A stretch of 49,174 nucleotides of DNA. Source: Escherichia coli. GTDB taxonomy: Bacteria; Pseudomonadota; Gammaproteobacteria; Enterobacterales; Enterobacteriaceae. Below the pieces are notes generated by a model. That model saw nothing but the letters and a program-made list of their open reading frames with translations. It was not told the origin of the DNA and did no database searches. This document shows, one piece after another, positions 41,451 through 45,325 of the stretch (position 1 is the stretch's first letter; every line of letters begins with the position of its first letter). Both the position numbers and the translations under genes were made by a program. Location of the stretch: the NCBI RefSeq assembly GCF_003334255.1, contig NZ_QOWU01000040.1. One strand, 5' to 3'.

Positions 41451-43997
41451 TCACGAAAAATATTGCTGTAATAGCGGCGTATCGTGATCCTGATTGGCAG
41501 GCGGCATGTTACCGATAGATTTTGTGCGGAACGGAATCACCTGTTCACGACCATCAACCTTCACAATCTGATAGAACTGCGGCAGGTTGAAGTTGATGAA
41601 GCTTGAGCCGTAGGTAAAACGGTCATGCGATGACGAGTAGAAGCGACTGACGTCACGTACCAGCTCCTCTTTGCTGCCTTCGCAGTGGTGATATACCTCA
41701 ACCCGGTTGCTTTCGTCGAGAATGTAGATATTAAAGCCATTCTCGTCTTGCGTTTCTTCGAAAAAGAACTGGATGATCCCTTCGCTGGCAAAGCCGTCCA
41801 CCACCGCCGGTAATTTGACGTGATTGGTTTCAACCTGCACTGACAGGCCGTGCAGTTTGTTATGCGAAATCGCGCCATAAAACTCGATGGCGTTTTCCAG
41901 TTTCTGTACCGATACATTCAGGCGTTCGAAGAACAACCCCCAGGTTTGACCAGAAACGCGCAGCGCCTTGAAACGCCCGGTTTCCTGGCGGGTGCTGGAA
42001 AGACGCAATTCAATACACTCAGAAACCAGTTGCTGCACGCGAGTACGAATTAAGCCGCGCAGATGCTGGCTATAACAGAAGACTTCCACGCTATCTGGCG
42101 GTGCGGCGTCCTGATGCATTTTGCCGAGAATAGTTTTCAGGGCTTCGATCATCGATTGCTCGCCGTTGAAGTGCAGCGTACGCACTTCGTTCCACGAGTT
42201 GCGGTACAGCAGGTCAACGCTACCTACCAGGCAATTTTGATTCTCGCCAAAGCTGAAGACATCCAGCTTACGGAAATCGAAATGCACCACCTGATTGCGG
42301 AACGCCGCTGTCGGGTCATATTCCAGGTTAACGATAATCGCCAGATGGCGGATCTCACACGGGCTGTAGAGCGCCTTCGGTGTCGGTGCAGGTAAGCGCA
42401 GCGGGAAATGGTGCGACACGTCGGCGACCATCTCCTGCAACTTAGGCAAATCGACAATGCCGTTACCTTTAATATACAAACGGGTGCGCGAGGTCAGCAG
42501 GCCGTTAAACCATGCCCACGCCACCAGTTTATTCAGGTAACGGTTATATTCCAGCGGCTGATGGCTGATGATCGACTCAATATTTGGCGCGCGGTTATAC
42601 AGATACCAACCTGAACGGTTAGCCCGGCCCGGCGGCACATAAATAAAGGTCAGATTCGGTTCCGAGAGATCGGGTGAAATCTGCGGGTTTACCAGCGTCA
42701 CTTTACCTGGTAATGCTTCAAACGCGGCATACAGCTTACGCGTCAGCACGCCGATATCCTGCGGACTGGCGGAGACGCTAAGGTTATTGCGACGCGCAAA
42801 GCGGATCAGATTACGGTAGCTCTGCATCATCGCGTCGAGCAACTCGTTGTGCGCCTCACGCACCTGATCAATCTTCCAGTTAGCGCGGTTATCGAGCATT
42901 GCCAGACGAGCTTCGTCCCAACCCCACTCGCTCACTAACTGGCTCAACACTGCGCGACGCCAGCCTACGCAGGCGCGTTCACGGCTGAGCTTTTCGCACA
43001 CTTTTAAATAGAAGCAGCGACGTACTAAATCCAGACGGGTAAGATCTTCAATCGCCGTCAGGTATTCAGTAACACGCTCCAGCATCATGCAGTATGGATC
43101 GAGACCAAACGATACAATCTCGCCGTCGTGCAAACGCTGTTTGATATCTTTCGCCAGCAGACGTGGGTTCGGGTATTCCCAGGAATAGGCTTCCAGCAGC
43201 AGTGTTTTCAGTACCGCTTTGTATGGGGAATCGATACTCTTGTAGAGCTGCCAAAGGCTGGCACCAAAGTACTCTTCAGCAGAAAGCGAGCTTAAGCCAC
43301 CGAGATCCAGCCATTCATTTGGCGTCAGCACGCCCTGCGCGTAAAGCGTCATCACATAGTCGTCGTAATGCTCTTCTTCGTCGCACGGCACCATATTCCA
43401 CAGAATACGCTTACCGGCGAGACGCACGGCGGTACGATAAAATTCGTCAAGCAGCAGTATATGCTGGGTGGAGCCACAATCTTCGCCCCCCAGGCTGCCG
43501 CTTTCATTATGACGGAAGCGGTTTTCATCAATCAGGAAGAAGCTGACTTCCACACCCAGCGAGGCGGCCCAGTTTTCCAGCAGGCTACATTTACGTTGTA
43601 GCAATTGGCGCTCTTCGCTATCGAGCCAGGATTGATGACAGACCCAGATATCCAGGTCAGAGGAACAACTTTGCCCTACGGACGAGGTGCTGCCCATGGT
43701 GTATACACCAGTAATTGGAAGCTCACCTTTCGGCGGATCCTGTACTGACATTCCACGATACAGTTCAAGCTCGTTCAGGTAGTGGCGTTGAGTTTCATCA
43801 GGCGTGTAAAGGCAAATGCCTTTGGGAACGTTACCATCAAGGTAACCCGGCATTAGCGGATGGTGATAGTGCAACAATGTCGGCAGTAGACTGTAGACCT
43901 GTTGGAATGCAGGCCCCATAGCAGCAAGCGCGCGATCCACACGCAATTGATTTATGGCATCCAGTCTCTGTTTCAGAGTCTCAATATAGAGGTACAA
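41451..43997 (-). CDS. cyaA: Adenylate cyclase (class I), TTG start codon
   Basis: 848-codon ORF. The first codon on the minus strand (43995..43997) is TTG, not ATG; the track shows M by convention. The product begins (M)[23 protein letters not shown]. Confidence 0.95.
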
Positions 43998-44383
43998 GAC
44001 GTATCGCCTGATTTGCTACCCGTCATGACTGTGATTCCGCCAACATCAACGGTAACACGCGGCATTCGGGATATTTCGTATGTCAAAGGTAACCGTTACC
44101 ACTTTTCGCGCCTGGTTTTTTTAGTTTCACGACGAAAAAATGGTCTAAAACGTGATCAATTTAACACCTTGCTGATTGACCGTAAAGAAAGATGCGCTAC
44201 ATACAAGTGTAGCACCGTTTATTCTCTGTAAATTCCTTATTACAACGGCGTGAAACGCCTGTCAGGATCCACTGCCAGACCTCATTTTACGGTTTGCGCA
44301 GGCGTCTACGTTTCACCACAACACTGACATCACTCTGGCAAGGATGTTAGGATGGACCACGGATGATAATGACGGTAACAAGC

Positions 44384-45325
44384 ATGTTAGACAATGTTTT
44401 AAGAATTGCCACACGCCAAAGCCCACTTGCACTCTGGCAGGCACACTATGTCAAAGACAAGTTGATGGCGAGCCATCCGGGCCTGGTCGTTGAACTGGTA
44501 CCGATGGTGACGCGCGGCGATGTGATTCTTGATACGCCGCTGGCGAAAGTAGGCGGAAAAGGCTTATTTGTAAAAGAGCTGGAAGTCGCGCTCCTCGAAA
44601 ATCGCGCCGATATCGCCGTACACTCAATGAAAGATGTGCCGGTTGAATTCCCGCAAGGTCTGGGACTGGTCACTATTTGTGAGCGTGAAGATCCTCGCGA
44701 TGCCTTTGTGTCCAATAACTATGACAGTCTGGATGCGTTACCGGCAGGCAGTATCGTCGGGACGTCCAGTTTACGTCGCCAGTGCCAACTGGCTGAACGC
44801 CGTCCGGATCTGATTATCCGCTCCCTGCGCGGCAACGTCGGCACTCGCCTGAGCAAACTGGATAACGGCGAATACGATGCCATCATTCTTGCCGTAGCCG
44901 GACTAAAACGTTTAGGTCTGGAGTCACGTATTCGCGCCGCGTTGCCACCCGAGATTTCTCTTCCGGCGGTAGGACAAGGTGCGGTGGGTATTGAATGCCG
45001 CCTTGATGATTCACGCACTCGCGAGCTGCTTGCCGCGCTGAATCACCACGAAACTGCACTGCGCGTTACCGCAGAACGCGCCATGAATACCCGTCTCGAA
45101 GGCGGATGTCAGGTGCCAATTGGTAGCTACGCCGAGCTTATTGATGGCGAAATCTGGCTGCGTGCGCTGGTCGGCGCGCCGGACGGTTCGCAGATTATTC
45201 GCGGTGAACGCCGCGGTGCGCCGCAAGATGCCGAACAAATGGGGATTTCGCTGGCAGAAGAGCTACTGAATAACGGCGCGCGCGAGATCCTCGCTGAAGT
45301 CTATAACGGAGACGCCCCGGCATGA
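44384..45325 (+). CDS. hemC: Porphobilinogen deaminase (hydroxymethylbilane synthase)
   Basis: Track ORF 44363..45325. Start trimmed to the ATG at 44384 ([20 protein letters not shown]), 313 aa. Confidence 0.9.

Follow-up and report, generated by a model that had tools for sequence, protein, structure and literature searches.

The region between cyaA and hemC studied here, in a window of 49,174 nt of Escherichia coli DNA (the whole stretch that was analysed, and to which all coordinates refer unless stated otherwise), is probably the known cyaA P2 promoter together with its 154-nt leader, with the CRP-like motif as the operator of this promoter and the 6-1-6 palindrome that had drawn attention to the region as an incidental feature, overlapping a conserved stem-loop of the leader that we call SL1. 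The palindrome itself is best explained as an accident, in which two Escherichia-specific substitutions turned a conserved, asymmetric element of the RNA level into a symmetric 13-mer. The regulatory region is an already known, classic E. coli promoter, and the palindrome, as flagged, is of little importance.

The initial annotation had described the region as a cyaA leader lying divergently to hemC. This assignment is right, as judged from the RefSeq annotation, in which cyaA and hemC are the flanking genes, from the open reading frames and from the spacer of 386 bp (43998-44383); the strings quoted in that annotation are all found, each at or within 1 nt of the place given for it. The cyaA frame, of 848 codons and encoding a class I adenylate cyclase, starts with TTG at 43995-43997 on the − strand, and the RefSeq start of hemC is the ATG at 44384 on the + strand. 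If the in-frame ATG at 44363 were the start, HemC would have 320 residues. Each of the 5426 complete E. coli genomes searched contains the 601 bases round the palindrome, in most cases with at least 99% identity. For the comparison between species, representative genomes were scanned with the first 200 residues of CyaA, which yielded 80 Enterobacteriaceae loci; the spacer could be delimited in 77 of them, and the conservation counts use those 77. The divergent order of hemC and cyaA is kept in 77/77 loci, with intergenic distances of 283-418 bp. According to the conservation profile and the alignments of these loci, a nearly invariant block extends from about 44240 to 44130 and contains the P2 hexamers and the CRP site, a second invariant block occupies the hemC-proximal part of the spacer, and the middle of the cyaA leader is poorly conserved. 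On the hemC side, a promoter-like site, CTGACA-18-TAGGAT (44324-44353, + strand), with a TG in front as in an extended -10, is conserved, like the hemC start region, in 77 species. The spacer also holds a 12-nt direct repeat with one mismatch, formed by ACGGTAACAAGC (44372-44383) and ACGGTAACACGC (44049-44060): the copy adjoining the hemC ATG, in the hemC translation start region, is invariant in 77 species, and that in the cyaA leader shows no conservation.

The P2 promoter (44158-44186, − strand) consists of the -35 hexamer TTTACG (44186-44181), a 17-nt spacer and the -10 hexamer TAAATT (44163-44158). These hexamers, which were read from the sequence and are absent from the output of a simple consensus promoter scan, are invariant in the family and are spaced correctly with respect to the published 5′ end. 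The core of the CRP operator, TGTTA-AATTGA-TCACG (44151-44166, − strand), has its centre at -7.5, counted from the P2 start, so that it overlaps the -10 hexamer as would be expected of a repressing site. A CRP-like motif had been noted at this place before, and it is present, the 16-mer reading CGTGATCAATTTAACA, although the string quoted for it was off by 1 nt. The core carries two mismatches to TGTGA-N6-TCACA, as CRP sites that repress or are weak typically do. Matches with two mismatches number 10 in the window, against 18.8 expected, so that a match alone is not rare and the significance of this site derives from its position and conservation, not from the quality of the match: the core is invariant or nearly so in the 77 Enterobacteriaceae, and it recurs as TGTTA(A/G)ATT(G/A)ATCACG in four more distant Enterobacterales loci. 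Repression of cyaA transcription by cAMP-CRP is established (Aiba 1985, as cited in PMC5544767 and PMC2238713), and overlap with the -10 hexamer, conservation in 77 species and this published repression together identify the motif as the known CRP repressor site. By virtue of the overlap, CRP bound at -7.5 would exclude RNA polymerase from P2, leading to the negative feedback known to act on the synthesis of adenylate cyclase.

Upstream of P2, at -43 to -64, lies the imperfect palindrome GCGCTACATACAAGTGTAGCAC (44194-44215, with 44226-44234), and directly upstream of it the conserved GAATTTACA. It was scored as terminator-like on both strands by the scan and hardly varies among the 77 species, even in the loop. 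Its few arm changes are non-compensatory, which suggests, at the level of the alignments, a candidate DNA-level site for some factor rather than an RNA hairpin.

The limits of the leader follow from published cloning primers. In Adams et al. 2021 (PMC7815308), which reports cloning of the "entire 5′ UTR" of cyaA, the gene-specific part of the forward primer starts with GTTTTAGACCATTTTTTCGTCG and the reverse primer ends with CAAATCAGGCGATACGTC, at the base before the TTG; this places the P2 transcription start at G 44151 and gives a 5′ UTR of 154 nt (43998-44151, − strand), so that the structured element of the leader described below is inside the mapped transcript. At the other end of the leader, the translation start region, (A)AAUCAGGCGAUACGUC followed by UUG (43995-44015, − strand), is invariant in the 77 loci as AUCAGGCGAUAYGUC-UUG and is found again in the more distant L082 and L084-L086. 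Translation of cyaA is limited by its UUG start codon (Reddy 1985, as cited in PMC5499595).

The inverted repeat for which the region had been singled out, GGTAAC-C-GTTACC, is indeed perfect and present at 44088-44100, that is, at +52 to +64 of the P2 transcript, where it reads GGUAACGGUUACC. Its symmetry does not go beyond chance: when the 386 bp were shuffled 2000 times with dinucleotides preserved, 32% of the products contained an equally good or better perfect inverted repeat, with arms of 6 nt or longer and a spacer no longer than 3 nt (11% when the spacer had to be exactly 1 nt), and the whole window holds 64 such repeats, about 0.5 per 386 bp. The hexamer GGTAAC occurs four times over both strands, a count that some hexamer reaches in about 20% of the shuffles. 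A further inverted repeat of the same hexamer, GTTACC-ATCAA-GGTAAC at 43830-43846, falls on Gly-Tyr...Gly-Asn codons of the cyaA coding sequence and is probably a coincidence. As RNA, the palindrome folds with -3.0 kcal/mol, a value equalled or bettered by 54 of 200 shuffles, and its hairpin has at most five pairs round a triloop, two of them G-C.

Conservation in related genomes, named by the initial annotation as decisive for the palindrome, holds for the core GGTAACGGTT, the only part kept across the 77 Enterobacteriaceae, but not for the palindrome as a whole. Its outer ACC is found in Escherichia only and is replaced elsewhere by TTT (or by TCT, TTC and similar triplets), with TAACGGTTATTTTTGACATAC in Citrobacter and Salmonella and TGACGGTTTTTGTTGAAATAC in Klebsiella; even in the Escherichia clade, one representative (L005) has lost 1 nt from one arm. 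Moreover, the two halves vary independently, with TGAC/GTTT in Klebsiella, TAAC/GTTC in Kluyvera and TAGC/GTTC in Pluralibacter, and the symmetric conservation of both arms that is expected for the operator of a dimeric regulator was not seen among the 77 Enterobacteriaceae. The core and the TTGAMAT that follows it are clearly under constraint. Within E. coli, population variation is uninformative, since the 81 bp round the palindrome are identical in 5395 of the 5426 genomes. The string ACGGTAACACG, to the left of the palindrome (44049-44059, + strand; +93 to +103 of the leader), is present as well; its reading as a related half-site is not supported, as it lies in a poorly conserved stretch and its GTTACC is changed to GTTTCC in E. 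albertii and in Escherichia sp. E1V33.

These data bear directly on the possibility that the palindrome, or its core TAACGGTTA, is the operator of a dimeric transcription factor which, bound at about +58, blocks elongation from P2. Conservation of the core at the DNA level in many genera, the 4-1-4 palindrome TAAC-G-GTTA of Escherichia, Citrobacter, Salmonella and Enterobacter, and the uniformity of the surrounding 81 bp in E. coli would all fit such a site, which we nevertheless regard as quite unlikely: the conservation is asymmetric, with ACGGTT as the best columns, and the full 6-1-6 form, at chance level in the shuffles, is confined to Escherichia and broken in L005. To our knowledge, the palindrome resembles no known regulator motif. 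A DnaA box, for which a scan had been proposed, is absent, as no TTWTNCACA with at most one mismatch occurs in 43998-44383 (the nearest are at 43394 and 44567). PhoB ChIP-seq gives a weak peak at hemC/cyaA (MG1655 3990899; PMC10294691), whose motif TTTCACGCCGTTGTAATA maps to 44239-44256, not to the palindrome, and is poorly conserved across the family; a FlhDC SELEX peak is given for the spacer at spacer resolution only.

The leader element with which the palindrome overlaps, SL1, is the 5′ stem-loop of the cyaA transcript (44098-44144, − strand; +8 to +54), with the predicted pairing ACCAUUUUUUCGUCG...CGCG-AAAAGUGGU. In the lowest-energy structure predicted for the E. coli leader, +8 to +21 pairs with +40 to +54, and the last three bases of the hairpin are the GGU of the palindrome. 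Folding of the 5′-most 66 nt gave the same hairpin in 48/48 aligned orthologues, starting with A/G8-C9-C10 and ending with GG(U) directly before AACGG. Position 9 is paired in 72/72 distinct leaders, with a mean z of -2.8 against shuffles, a somewhat generous figure because the limits of the hairpin were read off the same fold; taken singly, the E. coli sequences of SL1 and of the whole leader are no more stable than their shuffles. RNAalifold recovered only eight pairs from a plain MAFFT alignment, in which bulges shift the register and pairs are lost, and for this reason a covariance model was built on the SL1 structure and 63 sequences were realigned with it. In the model-fitted alignment, standard pairs make up 85% of the cells, a share that drops to 48-67% on sliding the partners. 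There are five pairs with changes in both partners, for instance from U-A to G-C in stems of the UUUGUC/GACAAA type and from A-U to G-C at the base of SL1, and the observed covariation score was reached by 0/500 shuffles. This covariation is modest, the sequences being related, the stem pairs mostly runs of U-A or U-G and the alignment fitted to the structure. The presence of the same helix with compensatory changes in the orthologues (48/48 and 72/72 leaders) thus has moderate, not conclusive, support, because of the close kinship of the sequences and the structure-fitted alignment. An Rfam scan of 43700-44700 with E values up to 10 returned only noise, SL1 matching no described RNA family.

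On the 3′ side of SL1 follows a conserved U-rich tract (44077-44097, − strand; +55 to +75), which reads AACGGUUACCUUUGACAUACG in E. coli and AACGGUUAUUUUUGAMAUAC in most genera and has a mean predicted unpaired probability of 0.55. Two candidate partners for it were rejected, namely the SL1 loop, in a pseudoknot (mean z +0.12 against shuffled loops in 67 leaders), and the translation start region (mean z +0.63). In terms of SL1 and the tract, the palindrome would be composite: its promoter-proximal GGU would provide the last three base pairs of SL1, its centre, AACGGUU, would open the largely single-stranded tract, and its distal ACC would be the Escherichia-specific change of UU to CC that completes the symmetry by chance.

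The T-tract pointed out after the palindrome is present, as CGCGCCTGGTTTTTTT at 44107-44122. The run proper, GGTTTTTTT (44114-44122, + strand), corresponds on the transcribed strand to the A7 run (+30 to +36) of the SL1 apical loop, whose sequence varies freely between genera, and the T-run is not conserved. Reading palindrome and T-tract as one operator or terminator-like unit is not supported: the T-run is 14 nt from a weak stem and antisense to a variable loop. Nor does the stem resemble the G+C-rich one of at least five pairs, with a loop of 3-8 nt, that was looked for, having five pairs, two of them G-C, and about -3 kcal/mol; no U-run was found 0-2 nt after it on either strand, the + strand having its T7 at 14 nt and the − strand only UUU, and a terminator pattern scan of both strands gave nothing at the palindrome. 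Among the RNA 3′ ends in the available supplement text of the Term-seq study (PMC7815308), none is listed between MG1655 3,990,900 and 3,991,199, and hence none at the palindrome (coordinates 39909xx-39911xx); the nearest ones listed there are 3990701(-), inside hemC, and 3991231(+) and 3991346(+), at +78 and +193 of the cyaA ORF. From all this, we consider the proposal that the palindrome and T-tract terminate + strand transcription, antisense to the cyaA leader and towards hemC, to be effectively refuted and hardly credible. In its favour there is only the visual impression of a stem followed by T7 in the initial annotation; against it stand, besides the distance and the lack of conservation of the T-run and the lack of a scan flag, the energy of the five-pair stem (-3.3 kcal/mol with two G-C pairs), the folding of the 45-nt stretch, which is no better than that of shuffles (z +0.86), and the lack of any MG1655 − strand 3′ end at this place in the supplement text.

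As for termination in the sense direction, the effect of Rho on cyaA vanishes in a fusion containing only the 5′ UTR (PMC7815308), which locates Rho termination inside the cyaA ORF and not in the UTR. In the same ORF there is a near-perfect hairpin, AAAGGCA-UU-UGCCUUU (43804-43823, − strand), and the listed 3′ end 3991346 (+193 of the ORF) lies 4 nt past it; the listed end 3991231 corresponds to window position 43919. It might also be thought that SL1 and the U-rich tract form an attenuator or pause site of the leader, a weak intrinsic terminator that limits read-through and whose E. coli version has been weakened by the change of UU to CC. A stable hairpin is followed by AACGGUUAUUUUUG in most genera, and in Klebsiella CACCGACGACGAATGGTG with ACGGTTTTTG was flagged as terminator-like by the scan; we hold this reading to be unlikely, however, as the U-run begins 5-8 nt past the stem, not 0-2 nt, the scan flags nothing in E. 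coli or Kluyvera, and the Term-seq supplement text lists no 3′ end in the E. coli leader. A second leader hairpin, followed by UUUU(U), is located in the variable part of the leader directly upstream of the Shine-Dalgarno region in Klebsiella spallanzanii (locus L027, 1458-1481), where the scan scored it as terminator-like. Similar hairpins are seen in the leaders of Raoultella, Kluyvera, Yokenella and Pseudocitrobacter, and E. coli, Salmonella and Citrobacter are without the U-run.

The conserved hexamer TTGACA/TTGAAA (44081-44086, − strand), inside the U-rich tract, could in principle serve as the -35 element of a second, internal cyaA promoter, with the palindrome in its upstream region. 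More than one cya promoter has been described in older work, and in Klebsiella a TATTGT stands 18 nt further on, the pair being listed as promoter-like by the scan. However, E. coli, Salmonella and Citrobacter have no -10-like hexamer at 16-18 nt (GCCGCG, GGCGAC), the sequence at this distance is not conserved, and the scan finds no such promoter in E. coli, all of which makes the internal promoter very unlikely.

The age of the different parts can be judged from more distant Enterobacterales. This set comprises four loci (L082 and L084-L086), with 71-88% identity in the N-terminal part of CyaA and one of them from Photorhabdus; a further locus, L083, was left out as E. coli-like DNA, and another for want of a DNA sequence. 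In all four (4/4), CTTTACG-N17-TAAATT is present along with the CRP core, as is the start region AUCAGGCGA-UUG, and all four are devoid of SL1 and of the AACGGUU tract, with no covariance-model match in those searched. In L082, where the N-terminal identity of CyaA is 88%, the leader is only about 28 nt long: AUCAGGCGAUAUCUC-UUG comes almost immediately after the CRP site and P2 (1100-1140 of that locus), without SL1, palindrome region or second hairpin, so that SL1 and the tract are dispensable in this lineage. The pattern indicates an ancient, indispensable set made up of promoter, CRP operator and start region, to which SL1 and the tract were added at the level of the family Enterobacteriaceae.

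Returning to SL1 and the U-rich tract, we infer that they would act at the RNA level, on mRNA stability or on the translation efficiency of this weakly translated UUG gene, rather than as a DNA site. More tentatively, they might constitute a putative post-transcriptional control element of adenylate cyclase synthesis across the Enterobacteriaceae, a possibility to which we give less than even credence. If this were true, the element may be an entry site for Hfq, an sRNA or RNase E, or else may help ribosomes at the weak UUG start, as a standby or enhancer site; a layer of RNA control would then be added to the cAMP feedback loop, and the E. coli palindrome would be a mere by-product. A text search of the literature found no report of sRNA control of E. 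coli cyaA. Expression of cyaA sets the cellular level of cAMP, and its post-transcriptional control is poorly described; a leader hairpin present throughout the family, with its adjacent tract, offers a defined place in which to seek such control, which gives the observation a modest value.

Compared with known systems, the CRP site is the cAMP-CRP operator of cyaA P2 (Aiba 1985), with the same gene, position and logic and with no difference, the site being identical. With intrinsic terminators and leader attenuators, the cyaA leader has in common, in most genera, a hairpin with a U-rich run some way downstream. It differs from them in that the Term-seq supplement text lists no 3′ end in the leader, Rho-dependent termination taking place inside the ORF. 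It differs also in the arrangement of the run, which is not next to the stem and which in E. coli is broken by CC. A further parallel may be sought in the 5′-proximal stem-loops of enterobacterial mRNAs, such as the hairpin of the ompA 5′ UTR, which affect stability or translation. Hairpins that stabilise the 5′ terminus usually have fewer unpaired nucleotides in front of them than the seven that precede SL1, and the cyaA element, whose function is a prediction, differs from the ompA type further in belonging to no Rfam family and in having no counterpart in one lineage (L082). What it shares with them is the position of the hairpin in a long leader, close to the 5′ end, and the single-stranded, A/U-rich segment that follows the conserved hairpin.
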